A DNA stretch of 63,728 bases, counting the filler, from Folioceros fuciformis (lineage: Eukaryota), in the NCBI GenBank assembly GCA_049999805.1. It is 8 parts of 8 records of this genome, joined end to end, with 100 filler letters (N's around TTAATTAATTAA, not from the genome) between each part and the next. Parts side by side here need not be neighbours in the genome. Positions count along the whole stretch, not along the records: positions 1 to 3,704 come from JBNGIO010005653.1; 7 more parts are not named here. One strand, written 5' to 3'. The translations under genes were made by a program, and so were the position numbers. Of this stretch, positions 1 through 44,642 are shown piece after piece (position 1 is the stretch's first letter; the number at the start of each line of letters is the position of its first letter). The notes below the pieces were generated by a model that searched no databases, had not been told where the DNA came from, and worked only from the letters and a program-made list of their open reading frames with translations.

Positions 1-1165
1 GACATACCTGTTCCTAGTTTTGTATGTGGATGATATGTTGTTGGCTTTGAATTCCCTCCACCTGCTAATAACGATGAGGGATTTATTGATGGCCGAGTTT
101 AAGATGACTCACCTGGGTGAAGCTAGGTACTGCGCGGGAATTCATATACAAAGGGACAGGACTACAAGGACTCTCACACTGAGCCAGGAGAGATACCTTA
201 GGGAGTGTTTGGCGCAGTTTAACATGACCGACTACAAGCCCTGTAGTACCCCGATGGTTGCAGGTTAGAGGCTGACAAAAGCTATGTGTCCAGTCACCGA
301 TGCTAAGAAGGAAGCCATGAGGGGAGTACCCTACAGAGCAATCGTGGGAAAAATCTTATATTCTCGAAATACTACTAGACCTGAAACGTTAGTAGCATCA
401 GGAAACTGTTCCCAATTTTTGGAAAATCCTGGCAATTTACACTGGGTGGCAGCAAAACGTGTCCTACGATACTTTGCTGGAACATTGACAGTTGGAATCA
501 CGTATGTAGGAGAGGTTGGAGGCATACTTACAATGCAGATTTTCTGTGACTCGGATTATGCTGTTGATGTAGATACCAGAAGATCAATTACTACTTTTGT
601 GGCCACTCTTGTTGGAGGACCTGTGGACTAGCAGTCACGTAAACAACCCACTGTGGCACTCTCAACAACTGAAGCTGAGTACAAGGTGTTGACAGAGGGT
701 GCCAAGGCTGCCATGTGGTCCAGGAGATTGTTAGCTGAGCTTCGGCATGAACAAAGAGAACCTACCATGTTGTACTGTGACAACCAAGGAGCGGTTGCTC
801 TTGCACGAAACCCTGTGTTTCATGCAAGAACGAGGCACATTGGTGTACAGTACCATTTTATTAGGGAAGCTATCGATGCTGAAGATGTAGTGGTTTCCTA
901 CATAGCAACTGCTGACAATCCAACTGATGTCCTGACAAAGCCACTAGCACGTGAGCTCCACAACAAGCATATAAAGTTTCTGTCACTTCTACCTACTACA
1001 CTAGCCAAAATAGGCCCTTCAGTCCACTTGAGTATCAGCCAGAATCTGAAGATGGGCTGTGAGAGCTTAGCTGGGGCAGAAGGCTGTCACGGCCTCAACA
1101 TTCATGGGGCCGTCACACTGTGGGAGCCTGTCGGCATCGAAGATTCAGAAGCTGCAGTGGTGTAG
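1..1165 (+). mobile_element. Ty1/copia RT-RNase H fragment, decayed by in-frame stops
   Basis: YVDD RT motif, DSDYA..D.DTRRS and ALSTTEAEY..CDNQGA..HARTRHI RNase H motifs; purine tract GTGGGAGAG at ~1249-1257. Confidence 0.95.
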
Positions 1166-1459
1166 CGCTGGCAGCAATTCGAAGACTCAAGCTACCGCGG
1201 CAATACAACGACGAAGAATTTTTGACGGGCGCTACTCTAATGTGCTATGTGGGAGAGTTGAAGAGCAGCACGATAGAGTAGCGTAGTTAGTTAAGTATAC
1301 ATGATATGAGATTTAAAGCGTTAAGTCGTTACCTATCTGCCGACCTAACCACCACGAGGTCAGCAGGCACCAAGGACGTGTCTGTCAGAGTCTGCATACA
1401 CAAGAGACTGCTAGCAGAGCGCTAATGTACAATCCATTCTAATCTGATGCGATTCCCTA

Positions 1460-1792
1460 CTATTTGTCTGGTGGCAAGGTCATTGAGGAAAGGAAAAATC
1501 TGGGGAGCCAAGGAAAGCATCAGAGGCTCATGTGGTTGCCCGGGCCACAACGACAAACCCAAATGCCATCCTCACTGTGTGCCTTGCACACACCAAGGCT
1601 TATCACAATTATTGGTTTGTCGATTCAGGTGCCTCAGCGCACATATGCTACATGCAAGAAGGCTTTATCAAATACAATAGCTATACACCTGGACAGTTTT
1701 TTCTACTTGGAGATGAGAGTGGACTTGCCATTGCCGGCTGTGGCACCGTGCAAATCCAGCTGCAAGATGGATCTACTCACCCTCTTCACCAT
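1460..1792 (+). mobile_element. Ty1/copia gag-end/protease fragment cut by an LTR insertion
   Basis: WFVDSGASAHIC protease motif and LLGDESGLAIAGCG; homology stops at ~1792. Confidence 0.85.
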
Positions 1793-2024
1793 TGGTAGAA
1801 TAATATATATCCAGCATTAATAAATAGTAAATAAATATTTAGATGGGAACCGGTAGATTCCTACCGACATACACAAGGGTCGGCAACCTAAAACTAATCG
1901 CCGTACCTTCACACTCACAGGACACAACCGTTCTGTCCTTTTTTAAGGCCACACGGCCAAAGTAAAGTACATCTATCATTCTACATCTTGTTTGCTCTCG
2001 CTTCCTCCTCGATCCTAATTTATA
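1793..2024 (+). mobile_element. 5' LTR of copia copy A (ends approximate)
   Basis: Shares blocks with the minus-strand LTR at 38039-38293 (AGAATAAT, ATCCAGCATTA, GGTAGATT, CCACACGGC, CTCGATCCTA); followed by a PBS. Confidence 0.75.
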
Positions 2025-2036
2025 TGGTATCAGAGC
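2025..2036 (+). promoter_or_regulatory. tRNA-iMet primer binding site
   Basis: TGGTATCAGAGC directly after the LTR. Confidence 0.9.
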
Positions 2037-2040
2037 GGTA

Positions 2041-2217
2041 ATGGAGGATGTGTCGCCACCGCGCGAGAGCAACATCTGCAAGAGTTTGAATTGCATTAGA
2101 AATTTGAGCCTCAAAGAATTTCATGCAGCAATCTCTGCACTCCGAGTATCTCTTACCCGATTTGGCGCAATGGCCGACACCTTTCTTGCAAGCGCCGTTA
2201 GTCACTACTACGACTGA
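2041..2217 (+). CDS. Copia leader ORF1, 58 aa, unknown function (below the ORF-track length cutoff)
   Basis: Hand translation MEDVSPPRESNICKSLNCIRNLSLKEFHAAISALRVSLTRFGAMADTFLASAVSHYYD*; homologous to 36239-36418. Confidence 0.75.
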   Translation: MEDVSPPRESNICKSLNCIRNLSLKEFHAAISALRVSLTRFGAMADTFLASAVSHYYD

Positions 2218-2226
2218 CTGCGCGTG

Positions 2227-2968
2227 ATGCCGAGAGCGCGAGGTAGAGCCACGCATTTGCCTGCAGACCCCTTTCTTGGCTGTCGCAGTGTGCCAGAGGA
2301 CGTGCACAACCAGAATCTCCACCGGTTCTTTGCAACACTGCAATTTCAATCCCCTGCACACGCACATAGATCACAAGCGTCAGCATAGGTGTCAGGATAG
2401 GCGTCGCACAACCCAATTCCATCAGCGACACCTGAAACCAGATCCTCTTGCTGCCCTTAGATGCCAAGTTCGATAGAATATCCAGAACGCACGCATAATT
2501 CCTGAACAGAGAGCACGCGAGCTTGCACGTTCTAAGTCTTATGATTTCACAACATTTACCGCACCAGGTTATGACTTCGTGGCAGGATTGTCAGGTCTGA
2601 TTGAGGCACACACAGCCAGAGTGGATGCACTGTTGCGAAATCACTCAGAACAAGTTCGCCAGCGCTCTGTGCACCTGTCCAGTGAAATCACACGTCTTAG
2701 TACACACATTAGGACCCTTTCTGGGCACGTCAAGAATTTGCTGCAGATTTCCTTGAAGAATTCTAGTCTGGATCTTACCTCAGAAGGTGCAACGCCCACA
2801 CCGGTTCATATCTCGAACGCACCGATTCAAATCCCAGTCGCACCGGTTCAGACCTCGCAGCAAGAACAAGAGCAAGACACACAGCTTATGAAGATGATTC
2901 ATGCCATGCTTCTGTGCAGTACCGGGCAACCAAGATCACTTGAGCCTGAACCAACTAGAGCCTTGTAA
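2227..2968 (+). pseudogene. Copia leader ORF2, coiled-coil-like, disrupted
   Basis: Starts MPRARGR..LPADPF, frameshifts into KPDPLAALRCQVR*..LIEAHTARV..HIRTLSGHVKNL..PVHIS..LMKMI; homologous to 36429-37070 and 43226-43838. Confidence 0.7.
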
Positions 2969-2976
2969 GACTGTAC

Positions 2977-3704
2977 ATGCCAAGGGGCAAAAGTCGCGGT
3001 AGAAGTAGAGGCAACTCACCTTCACCTAACTTCTTAGATCCACTCTCTCTCTTTGCTGCTTCATCTTCACAAGGTAGCAACACTTCTAGAGTAGATCCAG
3101 CCCTTGATCGCATTCAGCGAGCACGTCTCAAGAAGGCACTAGCAGATGCACGTAAGAAGCAAGCTGAGTTAGTAGCAGCTACCCTTGCAAATCAGATCAT
3201 AGTAAACATGGTCACTCCAGTTATTACCAACCTGAAGATAGATTTCAAGGAAAAGGACCGCTTCTCAGGGTCCCAGTTTGATATTTGGTCACTTAGAGTC
3301 CAGACAATTCTAAAAGAGAATGGCCTGTGGGGAGTTGTCACGGGAACCGTACCTAAACCAGCTGGACCCACTGTGACCGCTGCACAAGTCGAAGCTTGGG
3401 AGAAACTGGACCTGAGAGCACTTGGAGTGATCCAGTCCGCATTGGATGGATCAATGATGTCTCATACACAAGATGTGGAGAATACAAAAGAAGCTTGGGA
3501 CTCACTCACACATACATATCAAGTAAGCAACGGCTCATTGCTGGTTGGAGCTACAAGAGCGTTCTATACTTGTAAAATGTGTGAGAATGAACCAATGGAT
3601 CAACATGTGGTGAAGTTTCGACAGTTACGATCGAAGCTTACCTCAAGTGGGACGAGGACCACGGAGATGCAGGCAGCAGTTGCCCTCCTTCTCTCTCTTC
3701 CTCC
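2977..3704 (+). CDS. Ty1/copia gag, truncated by gap
   Basis: FSGSQFDIWSLRVQTILKENGLWGVV..AWEKLDLRALGVIQ (UBN2-type gag); close to 42211-43215. Confidence 0.9.
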
Positions 3705-3804: not shown

Positions 3805-4843
3805 CACCGCGTACCTATGACGAGACTTTCATGGCGTACCTCACTCAAGGAGATGCTACCTTTTCACCTCCCACTTCCGCGTCGCAAGTTGGGTCAAGCT
3901 ATGCCTTTTTCCCCTCGTACAGACAATAGTCATTTTTCTCTTCTCCACCACTCTTTTCCTCTTCTCCTCTACCTCCCCCTCCTTCCACTATTGCAAGCTT
4001 GCCATCTGCTACACCACCACCACCTGCTACCAAGTGGGAAGCTTGTGCCAAAGGAGTCGGATAATGCCACCACCACACAAACAAAAACTAGGCGCTCGTG
4101 AGGGGAATTGTGGAAGGACCATCACGTCATCAACCTCATTCATGTTCGAGGAGGATTACAAGTGGAGTTTGACAAAACTCCCAAACAAGGTATGGTCCCT
4201 CATCACCCTACAGTGATTGTGCTTCTCATGTCTGATCGTACTTCCTTCTCACCCGTTCTCCTCGCACTGTAGAGGCATTGATGTATGGAATAAGGTGGTA
4301 ATCAAGCTGTCTTCTATTTGTCCCGACTTTGACAAGAATGGAGAAGCATGCCGACAAAAATGGAAAACAATCTACAATGACTATAAGCACGATAAGGCCC
4401 TGAATGGTATTCTAGGAAATGCCAGGTCTGATAAGTGTCGTTGGTTTGATCTTGTAGACAGGTACATGGGAGAAAGAGCTCATGTGGTTTGTCCCCTAGC
4501 TTCAAGCCATGTGGATTCACATTCCGGCTCACAGATAAGTAGTTCACAGGAGGAAGGCCATGGAGACCCATCACTTGATCCCTCATGTTGTTCACAACCA
4601 CAAGAGCCAAGCGGTGTTGATGGGCATTCCAGTACACCTACTTCTCAAGGTATGCAAAATACGGAAGCTAAGAAGCGGTCAAGGTCTCGCAGTGATGGAG
4701 AAGTAGATAATCATATGTACACTATGCAGCTCTTAGAAAGCCTTACAAGGAATGTAGAAAATAGTGAAGGCCAAAAAATTGCTTCATTACAGAGCTTGAC
4801 TCAAGCCATCACTGTCTTGGTAAGTGCTCTAGGAAATAAGTGA
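3805..4843 (+). mobile_element. PIF/Harbinger Myb/SANT-like DNA-binding ORF (spliced; 5' part decayed)
   Basis: WKDHHVINLIHVRG..KQG, GT-AG intron ~4190-4274, then IDVWNKV..CRQKWKTIYNDYK..CRWFDLVD; convergent with a DDE transposase. Confidence 0.8.
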
Positions 4844-4897
4844 TATGAAATGATAGCATCTTTCTAGCCTTAAATTGTACTAACTCTCACTTACATT

Positions 4898-6260
4898 CTA
4901 ATCACTCTCACTCATGCTTTCGGTCATTTCATTGTCATTCGGAAAAGTGTTCTGGATTACCTTGTGTGTCTTTGCACTGTACATAGCATGTCCGATGGCA
5001 GAAATTCTTCGAACGCCTTCTACATACCCGGGAAGCTCAAGCTCATTTCTATCCCCGTTGTCATAAGTACCACCAGTATGAACTGAGGGCATGGCATTGC
5101 GAGCTCTTACTCCCCTGATTTCAAATAAAGATTCCCTTGCTACGTTACTTGCCTCTGTCTCCATATCACCAAGTACACAACTTTCACAATCATGAATTGC
5201 CTCTTCAAGCCATGCATTATCAAAACTATCCATTTCCTGTATGCACATGTTATGTAGGATAAGACATGCTTGCACCACCCTAGGGACATATTTCTGTTTC
5301 ATGTCCAGCCGTTTAAGAAGGCACCTGAAACGAGCTTTTAACATGCCAAATGCACGCTCTACAGCCATGCGAGTACTACTCTGGACAAAGTTCCAATTCT
5401 GCTGTACTAGTGAAAATCCATCCTTCGAGCCTTTATATGGTGTCAACATGTAAATACAAGGCCAGTACCCTGCATCACCCACCAAACTATATTGTCCTAG
5501 CTTACCACGATCACACATTTGCCCAAGTGTGGTACGCTTGAACAAGTTTCAATCATTAAGGCTACCTACCCAACTGAAATCATAATCCCATACATAGCAA
5601 TGGGTAGAAAACAGTAAGTTGTAGCAACTGAGAGTAAAAGCCCTTGTTGTTATAATAGTCTGCCTTGTTGACAAAGGGTCCTACGATCGGTATGTGGCTC
5701 CCATCCACAGCCCCCACAACAAATGGAATGCCTCTAATGGCTTCAAACTGGCTAGCATACTTCTAGAAGCATACGAGCCGTCGATGGCCATGAAATATAT
5801 GTATCATGTAAGGTTTGCACCAAAGCCGCACAAAATTGGTGAACACATACACAGACAGTAGATGTTCCATATCCAAAGAGATCCCCAATTACCTGCAATC
5901 TGTCACCTCCTGCAAGCATGAGTAAGGACATAGCAACTTTATGTTCAAGTGGCACAGCTTTCCTGCATGAAGTATCTCGAGTTGTGAGGACAGGATTGAG
6001 CTTGGCACAGATGGCGTGAAATGTGGCTTTTCAAATGCGCATTCTTCTCTTGAACATTGCATCACTGTATGAGCCCATGAGCTGTTGGTCAAAGAGTGAC
6101 TGGCTTCTCGCATATGTCCATATACTTCTGGAAATCAAAGAAGCCCAAGTATCTTGCAACTGCAAAACAACGCCCCAAGAACCCAACACCAAAACAACGC
6201 CCCAAGAACCCAACACCAATGCCAATGATGATGAATCAGCCACTTCAATGGCTACATACA
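4898..6260 (-). mobile_element. PIF/Harbinger DDE transposase (HARBI1-like), frameshifted
   Basis: LEHKVAMSL..IGDLFGYGTSTV, GAVDGSHIP, LVGDAGY, SSTRMAVERAFGMLKARF, ACLILHN spread over several frames. Confidence 0.9.
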
Positions 6261-6547: not shown

Positions 6548-7136
6548 AGTAATGGCATAAGTGAAATAAGGTGAAAGTTAAAAGTAGAAAGGTGAAAGCT
6601 AAATCTAGAGCTGTCTTGATGAAGAAGCAAGTATGCTTCTTACTGCCTTTGGAAAAAAAATGTGTGTTCCAGGCAAAACCTCCTAAGAAGGATGGAGTTG
6701 TAATGACCACTAGTATTCTAGGATGAGTGGTGTGTATCATTCCCAGTTTTAGCAGTGGCTTAGCTGTGGAGTATAAATAGGCCAGTGTTAGGGTCTTAAG
6801 GATACGGTGATACACTGATACACAAAGAGGCAGACAGTGAGAAGTCTAGCCTGGAGGCATAGCTGTGGAGGGCTTGAAGAGCAAGCTTGTCAGATAGAGT
6901 CGAGGGCAGTAGCCAGTGGGGCGTAGATCGCCAGACTCTTTGTAAGTATCTGGAATAAAGAGCAGCACCTAGAGGAGGTGGTCTGCGAGTCGTCAGTGGA
7001 CGGCGGGCTACTTGGAGCCTAGTGCTGAGTCGTGTGAGAGGGAGTGAGTGAATTGCAAGTGGAGCGCTGCGGAGTGTTTAGACGAGATTCGAGGCCGTTG
7101 CTTCCTTTTACGCTGCGTAAGGAAGGGGGCGTTACT
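6548..7136 (+). repeat. 5' LTR of gypsy element
   Basis: Near-identical to 11720-12308; starts AGTAAT, ends GTTACT; TATAAATA at ~6772, AATAAA at ~6954. Confidence 0.95.
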
Positions 7137-7140
7137 TAGT

Positions 7141-7152
7141 TGGTATCAGAGC
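7141..7152 (+). promoter_or_regulatory. tRNA-iMet primer binding site
   Basis: TGGTATCAGAGC 4 nt after the LTR end. Confidence 0.92.
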
Positions 7153-7254
7153 ATAGTCTATTCCTCCAAGATGGCTAAGCGCTAGAGGATGCAAATACGA
7201 GAGGTTTCCCCTAATCCCCCGCCTCAATAACTCGAGGAAAATCAAGGCAAGGAG

Positions 7255-8355
7255 ATGCCGCCTACCGACTCAGCAGGGCCATCCGGAGACAAATCTGAAG
7301 ATTGGAAGACGCAGATGATGGTCGCTTTACGACAAATTCTCCCCGAAATATTGCCGGAAGTTCTCCAAGATTTGACAGCATCTGGGAAAAAGGCAAGGAA
7401 GGATCCACAGCCTATAGCTCTACAAAATGAGGAAGCGGAAGACAATCAAGATCCTTTTCATATCTTCGAAGCAGTTCCGAGGGCAAATCTGAAATTGACC
7501 GTGCCAGATAAGTATGAGGGAGTAAGGGATCTACAAGCTATTGATTCCTGGATTTACTCTATTGAAAGCTATCTTGCTTCATCTGGCCTGGAGCCTAAGC
7601 ATTACTTAGGAACTGTGGGCAACTTTCTCAAAGGGTATGCTTTGGTGTGGTGGCGAAGTTATTGTGCTAATGTAGCCCAGGGAAATCGAGCACACACCAT
7701 CACAGACTGGGCATCTTTCAAAGAGGCCTTGAAGAAGCAGTTCCAACCTGCGAATGCTTTACGCTTGAGCCGGCAGCTGCTTGATAATATAAAGCAGACA
7801 GGTACCGTACGAGAATATGTAGGTACATTCAGTGAAGCTGTTATGCATTGTACTTCAATGAGTGAAGTTGACAAACTACATCGCTTCATGGTTGGTTTGA
7901 AGGACTGGGCTGCTAACAGAATTGAGTTGTATAGTCCAATGACCTTGGCAGAGGCCATAACAGCAGCAGATGCTATCTCAGATACCTTTCATTCCAACAC
8001 ATTCAACTCCTTAAGAAGATTTCGAGGTAATACCCGTGGACGGTATATGCAAACTAGGGTTTCTTCCAATAATGTTGCAAGAGGGACTCCCAAGGATAAT
8101 GAAAGGAGTACAGTTGTAAGAGGCAACTCCAGTGCGAGCTTCCGTGGGAGAAATCGAGGAGTGCGCAGGGGGCGCGGACCTCAGAGAACAGTGACAATGG
8201 GTTCTCGGAAAGGAGTTTGTTTTGCTTGTGGAGAGCCGGGACATTACGCGAATGAATGCCCCAATACTCAACAAACTTTGAATGTTGTTCAAGACAACCC
8301 ACAGCCCCAAAGACTCAGGATTACAGAAGTATCCGGATCTGAAAATCCCAAATGA
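7255..8355 (+). CDS. Gypsy Gag (retrotransposon gag domain plus CCHC knuckle)
   Basis: LKGYALVWW..WASFKEALKKQF..IKQTGTVREY; CFACGEPGHYANEC. Confidence 0.93.
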   Translation: MPPTDSAGPSGDKSEDWKTQMMVALRQILPEILPEVLQDLTASGKKARKDPQPIALQNEEAEDNQDPFHIFEAVPRANLKLTVPDKYEGVRDLQAIDSWIYSIESYLASSGLEPKHYLGTVGNFLKGYALVWWRSYCANVAQGNRAHTITDWASFKEALKKQFQPANALRLSRQLLDNIKQTGTVREYVGTFSEAVMHCTSMSEVDKLHRFMVGLKDWAANRIELYSPMTLAEAITAADAISDTFHSNTFNSLRRFRGNTRGRYMQTRVSSNNVARGTPKDNERSTVVRGNSSASFRGRNRGVRRGRGPQRTVTMGSRKGVCFACGEPGHYANECPNTQQTLNVVQDNPQPQRLRITEVSGSENPK

Positions 8356-11300
8356 CGGGATTGGCCACATGTTGCACAGGCTACATGTGGTGACTCTCAA
8401 GATGCTGAGGACAGCATTATTCATAGGGCAGGTGGAGAGCTCATGTATATAGAAGGATGTGTGAATCGTGAAGAAGCGAAGATGTTGCTTGATCTAGCAG
8501 CAACACATAATTTCATTTCTCCTGGCAGAGCAAGTAAGCTCGGTTTGACATGGGCTAGTATTTTAGAGCCATGTACAGTGAAACAAGCAAAAGGAAAGCT
8601 GCAGTTCTTAGGACAGCTAGAAAAAGTTCCTTTGCAGATAGGCAATTGGACTGGACAAGCAAGCTTCACAGTTGTAGATATGGATGATCATGAAATCATT
8701 TTGGGCTTAGAATGGATGAAGGCCAATAAGGTATGTGTAGACGTGGACTCACGCACCATACAGATCGTAGGAGATGAAAAGCACAAAGTGAGTTGTGCAG
8801 TCCTTGAGCATCAGCTTGGGCACAAGATTGATGAAGTCATCTCTAAGAAAGAGCTCAAGCGTTGTGTCAAAAATGGAGAGGAACTCTATTTGTTGGTGTT
8901 GCAAGGACTAGAAGATGGTCTTGAGATGGAATCTCAGAAGCAACCAAAGATTCCAAAGGAGATACAGGATGTCTTAGATGAGTTTAAAGACTTAATGCCT
9001 ACTGAGTTACCTCCTTTACCTCAACGGAGAGTTGTAGATCATGAAATTGATCTAAAGCCAGGAAGTGTACCGCCATCAATAGCGCCATATAGATTGTCGC
9101 TAGATGAGCTTCAAGAATTGAAGAGACAAATGTCTAACTTGTTAGCCAAGGGCTATGTTAGAGTCTCAAAATCCCTATTTGGTGCGCCAGTATTGTTTAC
9201 GCGAAAGAAGAATGGAGGATTAAGGTTATGCTTGGATTACAGAGCACTCAACCAGATAACAGTCAAAAATTCCTATCCTTTGCCAAGGATGGATGATATG
9301 TTTGACAGGTTGAAAGGTGCTAAGTATTTTACCAGACTGGATTTGATGGCTGGTTATTACCAGATTCGCATCGCAGAAGGACATGAATACAAAACTGCTT
9401 GTAGGACAAGGTATGGATCTTTTGAATTTCTAGTCATGCCATTTGGACTCACTAATGCACCAGCCACATTTCAGACTCTCATGAATAGTATATTCAGAGA
9501 TCTGTTGGATGAGTGTGTTGTGATCTATTTGGATGACATTTTGATATTCAGTTCTACCTTAGAGGAGCATGTCCAACACTTGAGGAAAGTGTTGGAAAGG
9601 TTAAGGGCAAATTCTTTGTTCTTAGCTATAACAAAGTGTGACTTTGTTAAGGAAGAAATAGACTTCCTTGGATTCATTGTCTCTGCTGATGGAATCAGGA
9701 TGGATCCTGGTAAGGTAAAAGCCATACAGAGTTGGCTGCCGCCAAGCAATGTGCATGAAGTGCGTATGTTTTTAGGATTGGCTAGCGTGTACAGAAGATT
9801 TGTACCAATGTTTGCCAAAATTGCTGCCCCATTAACTGATCTCTTGAAGAAGGTGAAGACATGGAAGTGGGATGAAGAATGTCAAAGGGCATTCGAGTTT
9901 CTCAAGTTGAAACTCAGCACTACCCCAGTACTAGCAATCTATGATCCAAAGAAATATATAGAGGTGTATACTGATGCGTCAGATACAGCTATTGGAGGAG
10001 TGCTTATGCAAGAAGGTAGGCCAGTGGCTTACGAATCAAGAAAGTTGCATGAACATGAGAGGAAATACCCCACATATGAGAAGGAGATGACAGCCGTCAT
10101 CAATTGTCTCAAGATTTGGAGGCACTATCTTCTCGGAAGATCTTTTGTGCTGTACACAGATAATGTAAGTACAAGCTTCTTTTCTAATCAACTACGACTA
10201 AATGCTAGACAAGCAAGATGGCAAGATTTCCTAGCGATGTATGATGTGGAGATTAAGTACAAGCCAGGGAAGGAAAATCTCGTGGCAGATGCTCTTAGTC
10301 GCAAGCAGGAGTTGAGTTTAATGTCTGTTTTTAAGCTGAAGAATCCTAAACTAGCTACAACGCGGATGGTGATTGAGCCAAGGGACACTCACACGCAGAT
10401 TAAAGAGGCTTATTTGCATGATCCATTAGTGCAAGATTGGATCAACGAGATGGAGCAACCGGGGTCTAAGTTTAAGCTTAGAAATGGCTTGTTAATGTTC
10501 AAGCAAAACAGGATTGTGATTCCTGATTCTCAAGAGTTGAGAAAAAAGTTGCTTGCAGAATGTCACGATGTGTTAAGTGCTGGTCATCGGGGAATTGACA
10601 CAACTTATGAGAAGTTGAAGAAGCTGTTTTACTGGCCTGGAATGTACAAACATACTGTAGAGTATGTGAAGTCTTGTGTAGACTGTCAGCAGGATAAAGT
10701 AGAGCAGACAAATCCACGAGGTTTGTTGCAACCCCTGCCTATTCCAAGTGGGCCTTGGAAGAGTATATCAATGGATTTTGTTATGCCATTGCCACCCAGT
10801 AATGGATACACAGCTATCATGACAGTTGTTGATAGGTTCAGCAAGCAAGCACACTTTATCTCCACGAAGAAGCAAGTGAAGGCTTTAGAAGTTGCTCAAT
10901 TGTTTAAGAAGCATATCTATGTGTTACATGGATTGCCTATGCAAATTGTGAGTGATAGAGATCCCAGATTCACAGCGGAAATTTGGCAACAGCTTATGAA
11001 GAGCTTGGGAGTGCAACTATGTCTAAGTACAGCATATCACCCTGATACAGATGGATCTACAGAAAGAGTAAACAGAATCCAAGAGGAATACTTACGACAC
11101 TATGTACAAATGGACCAAAGGAACTGGAGTAATCATCTTGAGGATGCAGAGTTTTGTTATAACAATACTGTACATAGCTCCACAGGCTATACACCTTTTC
11201 AGATGACAGGTAACGAAGCAATGGACGCAGTTTCCATGTTGAATGCTGACGTGTTTGAGACAGCAGCAAGAGAACCACGTGAATTTATTGAGCAGTTAAG

Positions 11301-11709
11301 CGCCAGGCATGAAATTGCTAAGAGGATTTTGGCCAAAGCTCAAAACAGGCAAAAGAAGTTTGCTGATAGGCACAAGAAAGAGGCAGAATTTCAAGTGGGT
11401 GACAAGGTTTGGGTAAAGTTGAAACACTTCCCAGTACCTCAAGGATTGTCCCCAAAGTTAAGGCCTAAGTATGGAGGTCCTTTCGTAGTTCTAAAGCGCA
11501 TTGGGAATGTGGCTTACAAACTACAACTGCCTAATTGGATCTTCTCTCATGATGTGTTTCATGTCTCTTTGCTGAAACCGTTTGTGATTTCGAAAGAGAA
11601 TGACGACATGAACAGATCTTGTCTGGGTTTCACTTCAAGATGTGCAACAAGGATCATGGATGATCTCACGTTATACTGCAGGTCATTGAGGACAATGACA
11701 TCTTCCTAG
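8356..11709 (+). CDS. Gypsy Pol (PR-RT-RNase H-INT), in frame with gag
   Basis: LLDLAATHNF protease, YLDD RT, TDASD RNase H, HHCC zinc finger, ISMDF..SDRD..E integrase, YGGPF; frame open from 8356, first ATG at 8443. Confidence 0.95.
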   Translation, partial: RDWPHVAQATCGDSQDAEDSIIHRAGGELMYIEGCVNREEAKMLLDLAATHNFISPGRASKLGLTWASILEPCTVKQAKGKLQFLGQLEKVPLQIGNWTGQASFTVVDMDDHEIILGLEWMKANKVCVDVDSRTIQIVGDEKHKVSCAVLEHQLGHKIDEVISKKELKRCVKNGEELYLLVLQGLEDGLEMESQKQPKIPKEIQDVLDEFKDLMPTELPPLPQRRVVDHEIDLKPGSVPPSIAPYRLSLDELQELKRQMSNLLAKGYVRVSKSLFGAPVLFTRKKNGGLRLCLDYRALNQITVKNSYPLPRMDDMFDRLKGAKYFTRLDLMAGYYQIRIAEGHEYKTACRTRYGSFEFLVMPFGLTNAPATFQTLMNSIFRDLLDECVVIYLDDILIFSSTLEEHVQHLRKVLERLRANSLFLAITKCDFVKEEIDFLGFIVSADGIRMDPGKVKAIQSWLPPSNVHEVRMFLGLASVYRRFVPMFAKIAAPLTDLLKKVKTWKWDEECQRAFEFLKLKLSTTPVLAIYDPKKYIEVYTDASDTAIGGVLMQEGRPVAYESRKLHEHERKYPTYEKEMTAVINCLKIWRHYLLGRSFVLYTDNVSTSFFSNQLRLNARQARWQDFLAMYDVEIKYKPGKENLVADALSRKQELSLMSVFKLKNPKLATTRMVIEPRDTHTQIKEAYLHDPLVQDWINEMEQPGSKFKLRNGLLMFKQNRIVIPDSQELRKKLLAECHDVLSAGHRGIDTTYEKLKKLFYWPGMYKHTVEYVKSCVDCQQDKVEQTNPRGLLQPLPIPSGPWKSISMDFVMPLPPSNGYTAIMTVVDRFSKQAHFISTKKQVKALEVAQLFKKHIYVLHGLPMQIVSDRDPRFTAEIWQQLMKSLGVQLCLSTAYHPDTDGSTERVNRIQEEYLRHYVQMDQRNWSNHLEDAEFCYNNTVHSSTGYTPFQMTGNEAMDAVSMLNADVFETAAREPREFIEQLSARHEIAKRILAKAQNRQKKFADRHKKEAEFQVGDKVWVKLKHFPVPQGLSPKLRPKYGGPFVVLKRIGNVAYKLQLPNWIFSHDVFHVSLLKPFVISKENDDMNRSCLGFTSRCATRIMDDLTLYCRSLRTMTSS

Positions 11710-11719
11710 TGGGGAAGAG

Positions 11720-35230: not shown

Positions 35231-36238
35231 ATGCGGCTTAGTAGGGTTTTTCTTTTCTTTTCTTTTTTGTCATTTTTCTATTTGATTTTTACTAATTAGG
35301 TTAGTTGACCAGGAAATAGTTGCTGTGGTTAGTAGAGTGGTTATAGGTTTGGTACCAGGCCTAAGGAAACTTAGCTTTGGTACCATATCTTAGGTTTGGC
35401 TTAGTCTTAGGTCCGGGCATAGGTTTGGTTTTCAACCTGGTAATATTTCATTAATATGTAATTCACTTAATTCTTTTAGATAATATTAAATAATTGAATA
35501 ATTAAATACTAGTTTGAATAAGGTGGCTACCTCACAAAGGGAATCTATGCAAGTGAGGTGGTGTCTCACCATTAAGGGATAGGCTAGAAGCCAGCTAGGT
35601 CGGCTTGTAGGGCATAGCAGTAAGAGGAACATGAATACCAGCAATGAGGTAATGACGGTCTAGGTTGAGGAGTCAGAGCCCTGGCCATGGTGAGTTGTGG
35701 CATGGGACACCACCAAAACACAACACTGTGGAGACAATGGCCATGATGGTGCACTTGGTGGAGTGAGCCCAGCCAGATGCGAGATTGAGGGTACATTGGC
35801 GGCTATCCAAGCAAGGTTACGGGATTTGGGACTTTATGACAGAAAATCGCACAAGCAGAGATCAGCATGGGGCACTGGCTATCACATTGGGCTCTGTTAG
35901 CAAAGAGCAGAACTTGATCCTTAGGCTCTACTAGCTGAGAGCAGAACTCAATCCTTTGGTCTAGACGCAGGGGTGCTCGTGTGTCAGCTGCTGACCAAGA
36001 GAGGATGGGAGATTGAGCCATACAACAAGAGGCCTGGACACGAGCATGAGTTCCATAAACGTGAGTTGCTGGAGAGCGCATGCTAATGATCAACAAGTAG
36101 GATGTCATATCCGGCAGGAAGGCACTGCGAGCTGCCGATCGAGACCATTGCAGAGCTAGCTAAGGGCAATTGGGCTTGAACCAGTTGGGAATCGTGAGCA
36201 AAATTCTCGATCCTCTCGATCTTCATGGTATCAGAGCC

Positions 36239-36418
36239 ATGATGGACTCTGCCGGGCTTCCAATCATCTGCGCAACCTGCAACAGCGCAAATTGCGTCAA
36301 GAACTTGCCACATCAACAATTTTGCGCTGTAATTGCTACATTGAAGGCTGCGCTCACAACATTTGGAAGTATGGCAGACGTCTTCCTTGCTAGCGCTGTT
36401 GATCACTACTACTCGTGA
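36239..36418 (+). CDS. Copia leader ORF1, 59 aa
   Basis: MMDSAGLPIICATCNSANCVKNLPHQQFCAVIATLKAALTTFGSMADVFLASAVDHYYS*; homolog of 2041-2217. Confidence 0.75.
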   Translation: MMDSAGLPIICATCNSANCVKNLPHQQFCAVIATLKAALTTFGSMADVFLASAVDHYYS

Positions 36419-36428
36419 TCTCAGCGCT

Positions 36429-37070
36429 ATGCCGAGAGCTAGAAGCCAGAGAAACCCCCTGCCATCATACCCCTTTGCAGGCAGATCTGGTGAAACAATT
36501 GAATCACAGCATAGGAGACTGAACCATTTCTTCACGAATCACTATCAAGTCCTTGCATGCCCTACACACACACACAGCGTAGGTCTCATTAGGCAACATT
36601 CTCAGCCCAACCCCTTGCACAATTTACATCGTTAAGTTAGACAGCAAATCGCACACGCTCGTGACATTTCTGCACAAGCTGAATATCAACTGCAGGCACG
36701 TTCTAGTATTTGTAACACTTGTACTAGAGACCTTAATTCTTTTCCATGCCCGTCAGACAACTTGCTCATTGACATTTATGATCTTGTAAAATCTCAAACT
36801 GTCAAGGTTAGGTAGCACATCTCAGAGTTGACCCACAAGGTTCAAGCACAAAATAGACACATCACCTGCCTGTCACATCAGATCAATAATCTCTGCCTTG
36901 ACAAACCTACGTCTCTTCAAGGAAAGACAACTGTACCTGTTCATATCTCACCCGAAGAACAAAAACCGCAGTCAGATTTAGAGAAAATGATCAAAGTCAT
37001 GCGGGAGGCATTTGCTAAGGACTCTGAACACCTAACTGCACTGGAGGAAGAGGCCGGGAGACCACTCTGA
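36429..37070 (+). pseudogene. Copia leader ORF2, ~213 codons, two in-frame stops
   Basis: Single frame MPRARSQRNPLPSYPF..PNPLHNLHR*VRQQI..KVR*HISELTHK..PVHISPEE..LEKMIKV..LTALEEEAGRPL*. Confidence 0.72.
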
Positions 37071-38038
37071 GCAAGCGGCATATGTCAAGCAGTGGAAGAG
37101 CTCGAGGAAATCCAAATCCTTCACATAGAGCTCGTGGTCGAGGTAGGGGCAGAGGTTCGAGGTTATGGGAGAGGAATTCATTACGGTAGTGGTCCTTCCA
37201 TGCCTATAGACCCTCTCTCCCTTTATCAAACCCAGAGCCAACCAACCTCGTCCCAATCAAGTAACACTGTACCTACAAATTTGCACACTGCACAGGTTCA
37301 ACATGTTGCACAAGCTGGAGCAGTAGTTCAAAACACAGAAGCTGCACGTCTTGCACAAGCCACAAGGGCTGTGCATTAGCGGCACAAGTAGTGGGCACAA
37401 TGGCTGGTCAACAGCACAGTAGCACAGTTACCAACAACACTACTGTTCACAATCTCAAGATAGATTTCAAAGAACGTGACCAATTTTCAGGCACTCAATT
37501 TGACATATGGGGACTTAGGGTTCAGACTATCCTGAAGGACAATGATCTTTGGGGTGTTGTTTCCGGGACTATCCCTAAACCTACTGCTACTGCTCCACTT
37601 GCTGATAGAGAGGCATGGGCCAAACTAGATCTCTGTGCCCTAGGAGTCATACAATCAGCATTGGACGGTATAATGATGCACCATACTCGAGAGGCAAAAT
37701 CCACAAAGGCTGTTTGGGATGCACTTTCACAAGTCTACCAACTTGTTAATGGATCCTCACTTGTTAGTGCAACGTTGACATGACTTCTATAACTGTAAAA
37801 TGAGAGAGCATGACTATGTAGAGCAGCATATTATTAAATTCAGGACCTTGAGGTCCAAATTACCTCAAGTGGAACCAAGACCACGGAGATGCATGCTGCG
37901 GTGGCTCTGCTTCTCTCTCTTCCTAAAAGCTTCCGCACATTCGTCAGCAATTAGAGTTCAGCACTCCGGCAAGCAGCCCAAGCTGCACAAGTAGCTCAAC
38001 CAGGAAGCCAACCAGCTGTTACACTTTCAGATGGTATC

Positions 38039-38293
38039 TAAAGCTTGTAGGATCGAGAGAGCAGGCAAGCTAGATTAGAGAATAGGAGGATAGATTAAGG
38101 AAGAGCCGTGTGGCTCCTTAAATAGTCACGAGACCAACCGTTGTGGTGTCCCGTGGCCGTGAAAGTGCGTGACTGTTGTGTTTTGAGTCGGAACCCTTTA
38201 GTTGTGTCGATTGTAATCTACCCGTTTACTATCTGCCCTAAGTATTATGTAATTAAGTAATGCTGGATAAATAACTATTATTCTTAACCTTTA
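38039..38293 (-). repeat. 3' LTR of copia copy C (255 bp)
   Basis: Follows PPT AAGTGAGAG; TAAAG...CTTTA inverted termini; homologous to the LTR at 1793-2024. Confidence 0.8.
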
Positions 38294-41200
38294 CTCTCAC
38301 TTAGCCAACATTATGCTGACTAGGGTTTGTAACCATAGGTGAAAAAAAACGGCGCCGAGCTAGGTCACAGTCGATGGCGGCTTGCGCAAGGCTTTTCTCA
38401 CCTTACAGTTGGAGCTCTGTTCAGATGTTTGCCAAACTGCTTTGATAGGTTTATGTACGTCGGCTGTGACTTCACGAAAGATGGCCACCAGATACTTCGT
38501 TATGGTATGCTCCCTTGTGCTTACAATTGGTCCTCCCACTGCAGCCTTTGTAGGTAGATCCTTCTGACTGCATGCCTTTAATGTTCATGTGCAGAGCCTG
38601 GTGGCGTTGCACTACAAGGATGCCATCCAGAAGGTTCTATCCGGCTTGAGATGCTGCAGAGTGAGAGTCTGGTTACTAGCTAGGTGGACAGTGCAGGTTT
38701 CTTCTAGGACTCTGGGTCCTCCATTAACCCCATTGCAGCTGCAAATTTCTCATGCTTCTCTCTAGGAAGTGCTTTTGTGAGCAAGTCTGCAATATTGTCA
38801 TGTGTTGACACAAACTGTAGGTTAGCATGTCCATCAGTGATCACTTGTCGTATAAAATGGTGCTTGATGTCCATATGTTTTGTCCTGGCATGCATAAGAG
38901 GGTTTTGTGCTAGAGCTATCGCTGATTGGTTATCACTCAGAAGGAGTGTTGGTGCTTCCTGAGGTTCACCGAGAGATGCTAGCAATTCCCTGCCATGAAT
39001 GATATCTTGTGCTGCTGTAGTTGTAGAGATGTACTCTGCCTCTGTCAAGGACAGAGCTACCACTGACTACTTCTTTGAATGCCAAGCAATAATTTTGGAT
39101 TGTGATTCATCTTGTCCCAGCATTAAACAGTGTGCAAATATTGAGCGTCGGCTGTCAGAATCGGCTGCCCAGTTGGCGTCACAATAGCATGTAAGGAGCA
39201 GGCACTGTGGTCTTTGTTTGTACAGTAGGCCAAGATTAAGCGTACCTCCAAGATAAAGCATACACCGTTGAACAGCCGTCCAATGAGCTGCACCATAATT
39301 GGAGAGGAACTGTGAAGTCACCCCCACAGCATGTGAAAGCTCCGAGCGTGTCCAATTCTGGAAATAGATAAGTACTCCCACTGCTGGTCTGTAGGGTACT
39401 TTCTCCATTTGCATACGCTCCTTCTCAGTTTGTGGACACTGTTCCAGTGTAAGTTTTTCGCCCGTTGCCATGGGTGTTGCTGCAGGTTTTGCATTCTGCA
39501 TTCTGAACCGTGCTAGGACTTGGACAACAAATTGAGCCTGGTGTATAAAAATTGTGTGCTTGCTCAGGTTTTGACGGATCTGAATACCTAAGAACCAAGT
39601 AAGCTGCCCCAAATCCGTCATGGAAAACTCTGAAGTAAGGATACCCTTGACCTTATTCATTTGAGACGGACTACTGGATATTATTACTGCATCGTCTACG
39701 TATAAGGCCTGGTAGGCTACCCCATTCTTATCACAGAGTTGATAGACATTTGAGTCTGCACTACTTTGCACAAAACCACACTTCTGGAGGTACGTGTCTA
39801 TTCTTTTGTACCACTCTTGTGGTGACCGCTTTAAGCCATACATTGTTTTAATTAGTCTACATACCTTGTTTGGGTTCTTGGGGTCAACGTACCCCTCTGG
39901 TTGACGCATATAAATGGTTTCCTCTAGGTCTCCGTTGAGGAATGCAGTTTTAACGTCCATGTGCTGTAGAAGGTAATCGTGTTGAGCAGCAATTGCCAGC
40001 AGAGTGCGGATGGATGTTGCCCTGACCACTAGAGAAAAAGTCTCTTGGTAGTCAAGTCCTTCTACTTGGCTATATCCGCGTGCAACCAGTCTGGCTTTGT
40101 ATCGTGCAATAGTACCATCAGCAGCTTGTTTCAGTTTGAACACCCACTTGCAAGTCACTGCCTTCCGGCCAGGTGGTAAGTCCTCCAGAACCCAAGTTAT
40201 GTTGTCCATGATGGATTTGTACTCAGATTCTATTGCAGCATGCCACTTTTCCTTGTCGGGAGAGTTTATGGCTTCCTGATATGACTGGGGCTCTCCCAAG
40301 TCAAGAGGCATGTCTTCCTGTACCAAGAAACTCTGATATGTAAGTGGAGGCTGAATCCATTCATCCGGGGATGCTGCATGATGCCTTGAGCTGCGCCGAA
40401 GGACTGGCACTTCTTCAGGTACGTCCTCCTCCTGTGGTATAGGATCATCTGGAGATGAATCAGCATCTAATAGATTAGGCTGATGCTCACTAACCTCTTC
40501 AACTTCATCTTCAGGGAAGTCAGATGGTTCATCTTCACTGTCACTATCAGGGGGTACTACTGGTTGGGAGGACTTCTGAGTAGTAGTAAGATCGCCATCA
40601 TCACCTTGCTCAGCATCAGAAGGTTGAGACTGCATGTCTAACTGCGACTGTGTCAATGCAGGTGTAAGTAACAATCTCTTGTTAAACACTACACTGCGTG
40701 CATGAGTAGTTGTCCTAGTGACAGGATCTAGGAGTTTGTAGCCTTTAATGCCTTCAGTGTACCCTATGAACACAAACTTTCTTGCTTTGTAGTCTAACTT
40801 GACTCTTTGTTTTTCTGCAAGGTGTGCATATGCCGGGGAGCCGAAAATGCGTAAGTGATTGATACGGGGTTTGTCACTAGTCCAACGCTCAAAAGGTGTG
40901 CAGCGCGGGAAAGCCTTAGTGGGGAGCCGGTTCGTAATGTAGGCTGCAGTAGCAACGGCTTCACCCCAATAGCTTTGTGGGAGGCCAGCAACTTTCAGCA
41001 TGGACTTGGCTGCAGATTGCAGATGCTTGTTATTTATTTCAGCAAGCGGATTTTGTGAGGAAATATAAGGTATGGTCAGCTGCCTTTGGATTCCCAGCGC
41101 CTTGCAATAATCTTGAAAATCAGCTGAGATATACTCCCCGCCGTTGTCACTGCGCAGAGTTTTGAGTTGCTCTCCAGTTTGCCGTTGTGCAAACGAAACA

Positions 41201-43225
41201 TATTCTTTAAAACAGCCAAGCGTATGGCTCTTGTGTTTGAGGAAGTAGACAACCACATAGCGGCTCCAGTCATCAATAAAAGAGAGTATGTATAAGGCTC
41301 CACCCCAGGTAGCTGTGGACATAGGACTGCAAAGATCAGAATGAACAACCTCGAGAAGCTTGGTGGCTCGTGTAGGATTGTCATCCGTATAGGGGAGTCG
41401 CTGATGCTTCCCGAACACACATGCCTCACAGAATTACTTGTCCACAAACTGAAGCATGAATTTTTCTCTGTACAGAGTTGTGCTGGCCACCATTTGTTTG
41501 ATCTTCTCGAAATTAGCATGGCCTAGATAGCAATGCCACAGCATAGCTGCATCCTTGTCTTTCTGCTTGGTGTCCTGACTCATGTTGACTTGTGCACGTG
41601 TAGGAGGTAGACCTAGCTTAGAGGTGACATTAAGTTGATACAGGTCGTGGAATGGTGCCCCACTTGCTACTAACTTATTTTTATACTGTGGATCAGTGAC
41701 TGTACATTGTACCCCTGTAAAGGACACATTCAACAAATGCTGGGTAGTCAACTTGCGAACTGACACTAGGTTCTTCACCATTGAAGGTACGTGAAGAACA
41801 TCCTCTAAGACCAAGGTAGTTTTGTCAAATAGAGTGATAGAGACTAACCCTATCCCCTCTATTTGCATACCACTGTCATCTCCAAGCAATACGAATTGTC
41901 CAGGTGGCAATGGCTTGTACTCTATGAAAGACTTTTTGCAGTGACAAATGTGAGAAGACGCACCAGAATCTATAAACCATACATGCTTATTGGATGCGGT
42001 GGAGACCATGCATACAGCTAGTAGAGTGTTTGCCTTACGGTGTACCACATTGGATTCAGGTGGTGCCGATCTTCTGGCTTCGCCGGCCTTCTTCTTTCTG
42101 CAGTCGGCTTCCCAGTGTCCAGGAATGAGACACCAGTTGCAAGGCCCCTTCTTTTTAGCTAGAGCTTGAGGTGAACATTTCTTGTAAGTAGCGTTGTTGT
42201 TGTTTGGTGTCTAGGACTGCCTTGGTGGTTGTCTCCTGGGCCCCTTGTTTGCGTAGAGCGCCCTTGTGGATGACTCTCCTCGGGAGGAGGTGCCGCCTTG
42301 ATTGACAATTCTGGTGGACTCCTCCTCGAGAAGAGCTCCAATCACTTCAGATAATGTGACAGTAGGAGCCTGTCCTGCTGATGTATTCTGGGCTGCAACA
42401 CGCAGTGCAGAACTCAGGTTGCTTACAAAAGTCCGGTAGCTGGGAGGAAGAGAGAGAAGAAGAGCAACTGCCGCTTGCATCTCCGTGGTCTTTGTTCCGC
42501 TTGAGGTAAGCTTAGACCTCAGTTGTCTAAACTTCACCACATGTTGCTCGACTGATTCATGTTCACGCATCTTGCAGTTGTAGAATGCTCTTGTGGCGCC
42601 AACCATTGAAGAGCCATTGTTAACTTGATAGGTATGCGTGAGAGAGTCCCATGCTTCCTTGGTGGTAGCCACATCTTGTGTATGTGACATCATAGATCCA
42701 TCTAGTGCAGACTGGATAACAGCAAGAGCTCGAAGATCGAGCTTCTCCCAAGCCTCAATTGCAGTAGGAGTAGAAGTAGCAGCAGGAGGTTTGGGTACAG
42801 CACCAGTGACTACCCCCCACAGCCCATTTTCCTTGAGAATAGTTTGTACTCTAAGAGACCAGATGTCGAACTGAGTGCCAGAGAAGCTGTCCTCCTTAAA
42901 GTCTACTTTCAAGGTAGTGACAACAGGTACTTGATTGGCCATTGTATTGATTACTTGTGATGCAAGTGTTTGTGCGACCAATGCTGCTTGGTCTCTACGT
43001 GTATCTGCTAAGGCTTTCGCAAGACGTGCTCTTTGAATGGCAGCTAGTGTTGGATCTACAGTATCTGAACTACCTTGTGATGAGGACTGGGAATAAAGTG
43101 AGAGTGGATCTTCAGGTAATGTGTTAGATACAGGTATGACACCCCTGCCTGTGCCTCTGACTTTTCTAGTACCTTTCGGAACCTTACTTCCACGTCCTCG
43201 GGCGTTGTATGACATGTACAGGGGT

Positions 43226-43838
43226 TCACAAAGGTAGTGCAGCCTCAGCTTCAAGGGCTGCCAGCTGCTCCACGTGGCTTGGATAATATTTCTGAATAAC
43301 CTTGATCATCTTCATGATTGGTCGTTCTTCTTCTTCTTCTTGTCGAGATGTGAATTGGTGCACTTGTGATATGAACCGGTGCGAGTGAAGAAGACTCAGG
43401 TGCAGAATTTTTCAAGGATAACACTGTAAGATTCTTAATCTGTCCTGTCAGTGTTCTAATGTGAGTATTAATGTTGTTAATCTCATTGGACAGGTTTACG
43501 AATCGCTGCCACACCTGTGCAGCGTGAGTCGCAAGTAGATTGTGGACTTGAGCTGTCTGTGACCTAATCAAATGGAGCACCTCTATCAGCGACCTATCGG
43601 ACAGTGCGGGTGATGCTTCAGTCCTAGGATGTGCAAACTGACGTCTTCTTTGTTCAGAAAAATCGCGTGATTCGTGAAACCTTTGCCTAATCTGGCTTCT
43701 AGGTGAGACAGGAGAGTCAGATTTCTGGTGTCGCTAACAGGCTTGTGCTGTGTGACGCCTATACTAACTCTTCTTGACTTTGTGCGTGTGTAGAGGATAG
43801 AGATTGCAATGCGTGTCAAAGAAGCAATGCAGATTCTG
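43226..43838 (-). pseudogene. Copia leader ORF2 remnant of copy C
   Basis: RSQIRQRFHESRDFSEQ..LIRSQTAQV..HIRTLTGQIKNL..PVHITS, frameshift, then IMKMIKV..EQLAALEAEAALPL*. Confidence 0.72.
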
Positions 43839-44319: not shown

Positions 44320-44642
44320 TTCATTGATTGCAGAGAGTATCTGCCAACACTTATTCATTGATTGCAAACAGTATTAGCCAATGTAATCATTGCGAAGTTG
44401 ATTGCAAACATATTAGCCCATGCAATCATTGTAAAGTTGATTGCAAACGGTATTAGCCAATGCAATCATTGCGAAGTTGATTGCAAACAATATTAGCCAA
44501 TACAATCATTGCAAAGTTGATTGCAAACAGTATTAGCCAATGCAATCATTGCTTCGCGAAGAGTATTAACCAATGCAATCATTGCTTTGCAGAAGTATTA
44601 GCCAATGCAATCATTGCTTCACAAAGAGTATTGGCCAATGCA
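44320..44642. repeat. ~40-bp then ~30-bp tandem array
   Basis: TTGATTGCAAACAGTATTAGCCAATGCAATCATTGCGAAG units at ~44358, 44398, 44437, 44477, 44517, followed by shorter units. Confidence 0.92.

Follow-up and report, generated by a model that had tools for sequence, protein, structure and literature searches.

The window analysed here, a stretch of 63,728 nucleotides, consists of eight contigs of Folioceros fuciformis joined by N-padded spacers and is rich in LTR retrotransposons. Three diverged and decayed Ty1/copia copies carry the gene layout described below: copy A (2025-3704), copy B (36226 to approximately 38020) and copy C (minus strand, 43838-38704). The class was assigned from copy C, in which the Pfam domains Retrotran_gag_2, Pol_BBD, gag_pre-integrs, rve and RVT_2 were identified in copia order. 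The gag-pol gene of this copy (38704..43215, minus strand) covers 1504 codons in one frame, with three internal stops, and encodes gag, protease, GAG-pre-integrase, integrase, RT and an RNase H-type end in that order, the last of which was recognised by eye alone. Pol is visible in copy C only; the gag gene of copy B is frameshifted, and that of copy A is incomplete because the contig end cuts the copy at 3704. A tree comprising 67 of 85 rows placed copy C on a long branch together with two other copias from the window (90/83) and apart from the 63 metagenome rows.

A short 5' LTR in copy A (1793..2024, plus strand, ends approximate) aligns with the 3' LTR region of copy C (38025..38290, minus strand, approximate), while the recognisable LTR in copy B amounts to about 20 nt. 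Both LTRs together were recovered in none of the three copies, and every copy is incomplete on its own contig. The order expected of Ty1/copia elements, an LTR followed by a tRNA primer-binding site (PBS), is seen from the PBS in copies A and B and from the LTR alignment of copies A and C. The 3' LTR of copy C adjoins the gag gene of copy B on the opposite strand (38020-38300), so that copy C was likely inserted into copy B. The 5' LTR of copy A sits after a protease fragment of another copia, and contigs diverge behind position 1791. The region ahead of it (1-1791, plus strand) contains nested copias, with an RT/RNase H end, an LTR-like stretch from approximately 1259 and the protease fragment (1472-1791), which is related to copy C. 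The RT/RNase H sequence at 1-1170 is only 37% identical to copy C, belongs to a different copia, and was used solely within the control set. A broken copia gag-protease at 33522-35300 (minus strand) is also related to copy C (46% identity over part of gag), and the AT-rich stretch preceding this gag contained no match to ORF1 or ORF2.

Other features of the window include an uninterrupted ORF of 607 aa (29055-30878, minus strand) with weak matches to STAND/AAA NTPases below the Pfam cut-offs, and an ORF of 278 aa with a SWIM zinc finger (49132-49968, minus strand), which is likely a piece of a Mutator-like transposase. A divergent gene pair at 3805-6000, Myb/SANT-like on the plus strand and DDE-like on the minus strand as judged by eye, is presumably a Harbinger-type transposon. 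Short tandem arrays were observed at 27644-27806 (units of about 41 nt), 44331-44648 (33-40 nt), 48691-48813 (41 nt) and 55570-56132 (102 nt).

In copies A and B, the LTR is followed by the PBS TGGTATCAGAGC (2025..2036 in copy A, plus strand; 36226-36237 in copy B, plus strand), which we take to be of the tRNA-Met type. The same PBS motif is present at 7141 in an apparently very young gypsy element (6548-12308, plus strand) with 589-nt LTRs that are 99.7% identical and with separate ORFs for gag (7255-8355) and pol (8443-11709). An ATG at the border of the LTR and the PBS opens a five-codon upstream ORF (uORF) in both copies. In copy A (2024..2041, plus strand) it has a weak start context and its TAA overlaps the ATG of the next reading frame, ORF1 (TAATG), while in copy B (36225..36242, plus strand) the overlap is formed by a TGA (ATGA, TGATG). 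The uORF stop thus overlaps the ORF1 AUG in 2/2 copies by means of different stop codons, and we regard the PBS uORF that ends on the ORF1 AUG as a lead from two copies.

For comparison, we inspected 80 distant copia loci with an RT identity of 32-60%, recovered by an RT scan of metagenomes. Among these, 26 had a listed gag match, and a PBS was recognisable in 13 of the 26. In all 13, many of which are near-identical, PBS and gag are at most 339 nt apart and the interval contains no AUG; locus L012 (203-554) has a 339-nt ATG-free leader from the PBS to the gag ATG. In eight of these 13 loci (L017, L018, L033, L036, L038, L039, L056 and L078), the LTR-end/PBS ATG shares the reading frame of gag, suggesting that the PBS may be translated in those copias.

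Between the PBS and gag-pol lie ORF1, of 58-59 aa, and ORF2, of about 213-247 codons. ORF1 encodes 58 aa in copy A (2041..2217, plus strand), with a Cys close to the N-terminus, a single long helix by prediction and a second in-frame Met 15 codons before the stop, and 59 aa in copy B (36239..36418, plus strand), with a C-x2-C-x4-C motif, the first Cys of which is missing in copy A; the two proteins are 48% identical. The contig end cuts the 5' part of copy C, and ORF1 is therefore present in two of the three copies. ORF2 is broken in 3/3 copies. In copy A (2227..2968, plus strand) it spans about 247 codons and is disrupted by one in-frame stop and by a frame change near 2336, in copy B (36429..37070, plus strand) 213 codons with two in-frame stops, and in copy C (43226..43838, minus strand) it is cut at its 5' part by the contig end and contains two stops and one frame change. 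The identity of the ORF2 proteins is 31-45% across the three copy pairs. Both complete N-termini, in copies A and B, begin with M-P-R-A-R; the copy A protein has a basic N-terminus and a long predicted heptad helix, and ORF2 ends at a homologous place after a conserved C-terminal K-M-I motif. The gag gene follows at 2977..3704 in copy A (plus strand) and at 37082..38020 in copy B (plus strand, approximate end), where it ends at the start of the 3' end of copy C. A basic N-terminal extension precedes the second Met of Gag, with a length of 77-91 aa in copies A and C; in copy A the 77-aa extension starts from a weak ATG and is followed by a strong second ATG at 3208, DUF4219 and Retrotran_gag_2. 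The corresponding second ATGs are found at 37400 in copy B, where it is also strong, and at 42942 in copy C.

The first-pass annotation had described a tricistronic order of ORF1, ORF2 and gag/pol with short spacers of 9 and 10 nt at the first junction and 8, 11 and 10 nt at the second, and a recheck of the coordinates gave the same picture. In copy A, ORF1 (2041-2217) is separated by 9 nt from the ORF2 ATG at 2227, and the ORF2 stop (2966-2968) by 8 nt from the gag ATG at 2977. In copy B, 10 nt separate the ORF1 stop (36416-36418) from the ORF2 ATG at 36429, and 11 nt the ORF2 stop (37068-37070) from the gag ATG at 37082. In copy C (minus strand), the ORF2 stop (43228-43226) is followed after 10 nt by the gag ATG at 43215. 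The reported CTGTACATG is indeed common to copies A and C. An ATG occurs within 12 nt of all five stops, as compared to 9-22% of random positions, but these are not five independent events since the copies are related. The ATG after each stop is conserved, as judged on the alignment columns that are common to all copies present there. As a possible stop-start signal, the TGATG that immediately precedes ORF2 in copy A was rejected, being missing in copy B and differing at position 2225 in all covering X1/X2 contigs.

Constant spacer length combined with a varying frame offset had been put forward as an argument against readthrough or frameshifting. This argument is weak, because a spacer of 9 nt keeps the frame, those of 8 and 11 nt correspond to a single frame, and only two and three decayed copies are available for the two junctions. 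Recoding that fuses ORF1, ORF2 and Gag, with the spacer differences as products of decay, would be compatible with these offsets and with the frame changes elsewhere in copies B and C. Against it are the conserved ATG after each stop, the shared M-P-R-A-R start of ORF2, a predicted RNA structure (see below) that includes the ORF1 stop rather than coming after it, and the extra base of copy B, which is paired in this structure; for that reason the tenth spacer base may be native, one point in favour of the original frame argument. We consider recoding very improbable. Three separate cistrons in an LTR retrotransposon, each with its own conserved AUG, are borne out, and a non-standard route to gag-pol is needed.

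We examined whether the reading frames are under selection between the copies, the synonymous sites of which are near saturation. The in-frame pN/pS was 0.52 for ORF1, 0.60-0.66 for ORF2 (three pairs), 0.46 for the Gag extension and 0.14 for the Gag core (each P<=2e-4). For ORF1 and ORF2, the in-frame values of 0.52-0.66 (P 2e-4 to 1e-9) compare to 0.76-1.55 in the two shifted frames, noting that the alignments were built from the in-frame proteins, which favours the annotated frame somewhat. Over all shifted-frame tests the range was 0.76-3.66, and 1/12 reached P 0.028. The substitution patterns indicate purifying selection, in the annotated frame, on ORF1, on ORF2 and on the N-terminal extension of Gag.

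Contigs holding part of copy A were available from three DNA runs of one sample, which is possibly the window's own source and so not independent; the comparison to copy A lists 40 of 464 differences and 12 of 31 gaps. A sister contig of 1001 nt spans positions 2007-3005 with 32 differing letters and two gaps. The X1 and X2 contigs differ from copy A at its in-frame ORF2 stop, and this stop therefore looks private to copy A. Two additional diverged contigs have matches to the gag core and, as a hint judged by equal depth and from sides of 20-45 nt, to short pieces at the ORF2 start or within ORF2. Most differences in run X3 are C>T (122) or G>A (101), a pattern expected of a bisulfite-type library, and one X3 record carries private letters of copy A and may be the same locus. 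No RNA run was among the sequencing runs listed for copy A, and a 45-nt piece of gag was the only match from one presumed RNA run; neither result provides evidence on expression.

These data bear on the idea that the ORFs are captured or decaying passenger sequences without a role and that the layout is a by-product. The disruption of ORF2 in all three copies, and the failure to find a homologue or family, would fit such an origin. Against it are the frame-specific purifying selection between copies near synonymous saturation, the breakage of gag and pol in the same copies and the sister contig over 2007-3005 that differs from copy A at the in-frame stop, and we regard it as highly unlikely.

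Searches for relatives of the accessory proteins were negative. No ORF1 relatives were found among 5.8 billion proteins of 31-104 aa, two ORF1 matches among 1.84 billion representatives were rejected because both were translations of tandem repeats, and the Atlas gave no usable match. For ORF2, represented by pieces from copies A and C only, 0/209 candidates were retained, Atlas leads remained below 0.8 and Pfam gave nothing above the threshold. Gag itself had a single match of 25% identity among 8000 scored candidates, which implies that close relatives are absent from the protein set. Locus scans with gag (viral contigs and metagenomes) and with RT (viral contigs) gave no matches, and no match to ORF1, ORF2 or the Gag extension was obtained at E<1e-3 in the 80 distant copia loci. 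An Rfam search over 1750-3700 returned no family.

AlphaFold2 models were built from two-row alignments. The ORF1 model consists of one long helix (pLDDT 73.5, pTM 0.41), and the C-terminal part of ORF2 was modelled as a helix of 68 residues with heptad spacing (pTM 0.34); a fold search with these two low-pTM models against viral proteins gave 0 matches at E<=0.001. The best 19-residue hydropathy was 0.53-0.96 for ORF2, which has no transmembrane segment, and 0.97 and 1.48 for ORF1, which is amphipathic with charged residues. As a guess from composition and models, ORF2 is likely to form a coiled coil, to bind nucleic acid and to be associated with the particle, and ORF1 to be its small, helical and possibly zinc-binding partner.

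The region ahead of the gag core is poor in AUG triplets. The tests, which all rest on three related and decayed copies, were performed in the order dinucleotide shuffles, codon-usage null, plain rates, codon junctions and Markov model, of which the junction test and the Markov model were devised after the codon-usage and plain-rate results. In dinucleotide shuffles, the summed ORF1, ORF2 and Gag extension contained 25 AUGs versus 43.4 expected, as compared to 35 versus 28.6 in the control gag cores and 71 versus 64.5 in pol. Under the codon-usage null, the shortage of out-of-frame AUGs upstream was not significant (13 seen, 16.3 expected, P 0.17), the control showed an excess (76 versus 58.9), and the upstream/control ratio gave P 0.063. 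In-frame Met accounted for 10/1037 codons upstream versus 49/2074 in the control (P 0.007). The plain rates were 23 ATGs per 3108 nt upstream and 125 per 6222 nt in the control, with TGG and GGG falling further than ATG, so that composition contributes to the shortage.

AUG-making codon junctions were used upstream in 10/159 cases versus 80/380 matching non-AUG junctions (P 1.2e-5), while the corresponding control numbers were 65/304 versus 174/739 (P 0.47). Divided by copy, the test gave 7/56 versus 23/145 in copy A (P 0.66), P 1e-4 in copy B and P 1.3e-3 in copy C; expressed as percentages, the junctions in copies A, B and C (12, 3 and 2%) were all lower than in 12 control blocks (17-38%). 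In the second-order Markov model, ATG was the most depleted of the 64 triplets in the 3108 nt of ORF1, ORF2 and Gag extension (23 seen, 41.8 expected), as compared to rank 52 in the 6222 nt of control gag core and pol (125 seen, 113.6 expected), and the antisense triplet CAT was not depleted upstream. The upstream ORFs are thus depleted of AUGs but not free of them; the depletion is clear in copies B and C and not in copy A, which keeps eight out-of-frame AUGs upstream. It ends at the second gag AUG.

The start contexts are graded. The ORF1 AUG and the internal Met of ORF1 are in a strong context in both copies, the ORF2 AUG is moderate in 2/2, and the first gag AUG is weak and the second strong (A at -3, G at +4) in 3/3 copies. 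The copies share in-frame Met codons near the ORF ends, at a distance of 15 codons from the ORF1 stop and of 24-29 codons from that of ORF2.

A spliced or internally started RNA could skip the upstream ORFs for gag-pol, and perhaps for ORF2, with the strong second gag AUG as the real start. Alternative splicing has been described in the plant copias EVADE and BARE1 (PMC12786077), and each of the three copies has a pyrimidine-rich YAG candidate within its Gag extension (3037, 37235 and 43087). By a simple consensus scan, however, these candidates are not at one homologous site, no donor is common to copies A and B, and no conserved splice acceptor was detected in the ORF2-gag spacer. The Gag extension is moreover under purifying selection from its own ATG, and avoidance of AUGs would be needless in an intron. 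We therefore consider a bypass at the RNA level unlikely.

The explanation that we favour, with modest confidence, is a copia family with two conserved accessory genes between PBS and gag-pol, in which all three cistrons would be translated from one full-length RNA by leaky scanning and reinitiation after very short ORFs. Transcription would start in the short LTR, some 60 nt ahead of the PBS. Most ribosomes would skip the weak LTR-end AUG and make ORF1, while those using it would terminate atop the ORF1 AUG and then scan past it. Such onward ribosomes would initiate at the moderate ORF2 AUG or traverse the AUG-poor body of ORF2, and the late in-frame AUGs of ORF1 and ORF2 would act as short ORFs after which scanning resumes. 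The weak first gag AUG would give a long Gag, and the strong second AUG a short Gag and Gag-Pol.

Leaky scanning, which the sequence features favour, was missing from the mechanisms listed in the first-pass annotation, but it has been described for three consecutive ORFs in RTBV, where ribosomes cross 900 AUG-free nt (PMC5902531). In RTBV and badnaviruses, leaky scanning is marked by accessory ORFs that are cleared of AUGs; ORF III of RTBV was translated no less when a short uORF was present within ORF II, and uORF sorting is known from KSHV and SIV (PMC5902531). Like those viruses (PMC5902531), the elements studied here have two small, closely spaced and AUG-poor accessory ORFs that together cover about 900 nt before the ORF for the capsid/RT polyprotein, with graded start contexts. 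The moderate start of RTBV ORF II has its counterpart in ORF2 (2/2 copies), whereas the weak or non-AUG start of RTBV ORF I is not matched. Further differences are the strong ORF1 AUG, the conserved internal Met codons and the only partial loss of AUGs. Neither a long leader stem-loop nor a shunt layout was seen, and ORF1 and ORF2 showed no sequence or fold match to caulimovirid proteins. The elements are integrating copias with LTRs and an integrase, which places them outside the Caulimoviridae, a family that lacks both and has a movement protein-capsid-RT polyprotein. Since the ORF1 AUG and its internal Met are strong, unlike those of RTBV ORF I, a bypass of ORF1 must be assumed; the strong ORF1 start is the weak point of the leaky-scanning reading, and the PBS uORF is the proposed bypass. 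Leaky scanning alone does not explain the short spacers, nor the hairpin described next.

A hairpin was predicted over the ORF1 stop in both copies that contain this junction. In copy A (2192..2223, plus strand, -17.6 kcal/mol) the 3' arm consists of the ORF1 stop and most of the spacer, and in copy B (36391..36429, plus strand, -21.6 kcal/mol) the hairpin encloses the ORF1 stop and the whole spacer and ends on the A of the ORF2 ATG. The loop is predicted to be 8 nt. Of 171 windows of 50 nt, the hairpin window had the lowest energy and the lowest z in both copies (z -5.2 in copy A, z -5.8 in copy B). The hairpin registers are 2 nt apart; folded in the register of copy B, copy A reaches -9.3 instead of -17.6 kcal/mol and keeps 10/13 pairs, with two double changes. 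Covariation between the two sequences was not significant (120/500 shuffles). No structure was predicted at the ORF2-gag junction in 3/3 copies (z +0.6 to +1.2), and the PBS junction also gave no hairpin signal. The hairpin may tune the hand-over between ORF1 and ORF2 or, given its position about 170 nt downstream of the PBS, act as a signal for packaging.

Coupled termination-reinitiation, one of the routes proposed in the first-pass annotation, would have a ribosome that ends ORF1 (and ORF2) restart at the AUG 8-11 nt further on, with the hairpin hiding the ORF2 start until translation of ORF1 melts it. None of the five stop-start gaps exceeds the distance of 20 nt given for TURBS-type reinitiation (PMC10275272), copies A and B both have their strongest window at the ORF1-stop hairpin, UAAUG/UGAUG overlaps occur at the uORF, and retrotransposon precedents exist in SART1 and LINE-1 (PMC5972666). 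As in caliciviruses, influenza B BM2, SART1 and LINE-1 (PMC10275272, PMC5972666), a stop lies near a start with RNA structure near the junction, but here the UAAUG/UGAUG overlap is confined to the uORF, and the two main junctions have gaps instead of overlaps. The structure also differs in that it encloses the stop, whereas it lies before the stop in TURBS and after it in SART1. The TURBS core UGGGA (PMC5972666), the 18S-complementary motif used for the search, is absent from 5/5 upstream stretches of about 110 nt, so that reinitiation of the calicivirus type is not supported. Nor does coupling offer a reason to clear AUGs from the ORF bodies, and it has to accommodate the unstructured ORF2-gag junction in 3/3 copies, hairpin registers 2 nt apart and non-significant covariation. 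We consider coupling rather unlikely; it is most plausible at the first junction, where it can coexist with leaky scanning.

The expression system had been proposed as a candidate for an undescribed one, which is too strong. In the MDG1 group of gypsy elements in Drosophila (412, mdg1, Stalker, Blood), two small conserved ORFs precede gag on an unspliced full-length RNA, and both proteins have been detected (bioRxiv 10.1101/2025.03.14.642691). The likeness extends to an LTR retrotransposon with two conserved ORFs ahead of gag; the pol order is that of Ty3/gypsy in the MDG1 group and that of copia here. The MDG1 ORFs encode proteins of about 110 aa (sORF1) and about 70 aa (sORF2, with a transmembrane segment and a polybasic region), with a poly(A) site between them, in contrast to the 58-59 aa of ORF1 and the more than 200 aa of ORF2, which are only 9-10 nt apart, ORF2 being without a hydrophobic segment. 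The accessible text on MDG1 (bioRxiv 10.1101/2025.03.14.642691) and on Ogre does not address the route to gag behind the upstream ORFs.

In plants, extra 5' ORFs have been recorded by REXdb in Ogre, Tekay, TatII and a few Bianca and Ikeros elements (PMC6317226). These resemble the present case in having an extra sense ORF between PBS and gag, but they are mostly gypsy elements, and of the 16 copia lineages, Bianca (5%) and Ikeros (4%) are the only ones represented (PMC6317226). ORF1 and ORF2 would have been missed by that survey because it counted ORFs of at least 250 codons (PMC6317226). According to a review, most extra ORFs lie after pol (PMC7264820), and the accessible part of PMC2533021 gives the Ogre example only. 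Literature searches, mostly outside the subscription journals, revealed no copia element that has two ORFs ahead of gag or that uses leaky scanning.

A more far-reaching interpretation, which we put forward tentatively and consider doubtful, is that a polycistronic RNA like that of badnaviruses has arisen independently in a copia lineage. In this RNA, the PBS itself would encode a ribosome-sorting uORF, and the hairpin at the ORF1 stop would keep the ORF2 start closed until it is unfolded by a translating ribosome, a bacterial-style coupling by unmasking in a eukaryote. If true, one RNA would determine how much is made of two new accessory proteins, which may act in the particle, in movement or against silencing, and of two Gag isoforms. 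The leader-to-gag region of 1.2 kb is small enough for one reporter series that separates leaky scanning, coupled reinitiation and splicing. To our knowledge, copia elements have been treated as gag-pol-only elements with at most an env-like ORF at the 3' end. The depletion of AUGs is a testable sign of a plant-pararetrovirus polycistronic strategy in a retrotransposon, and two selected accessory genes without known relatives ahead of gag would point to unrecognised functions in retrotransposon life cycles.
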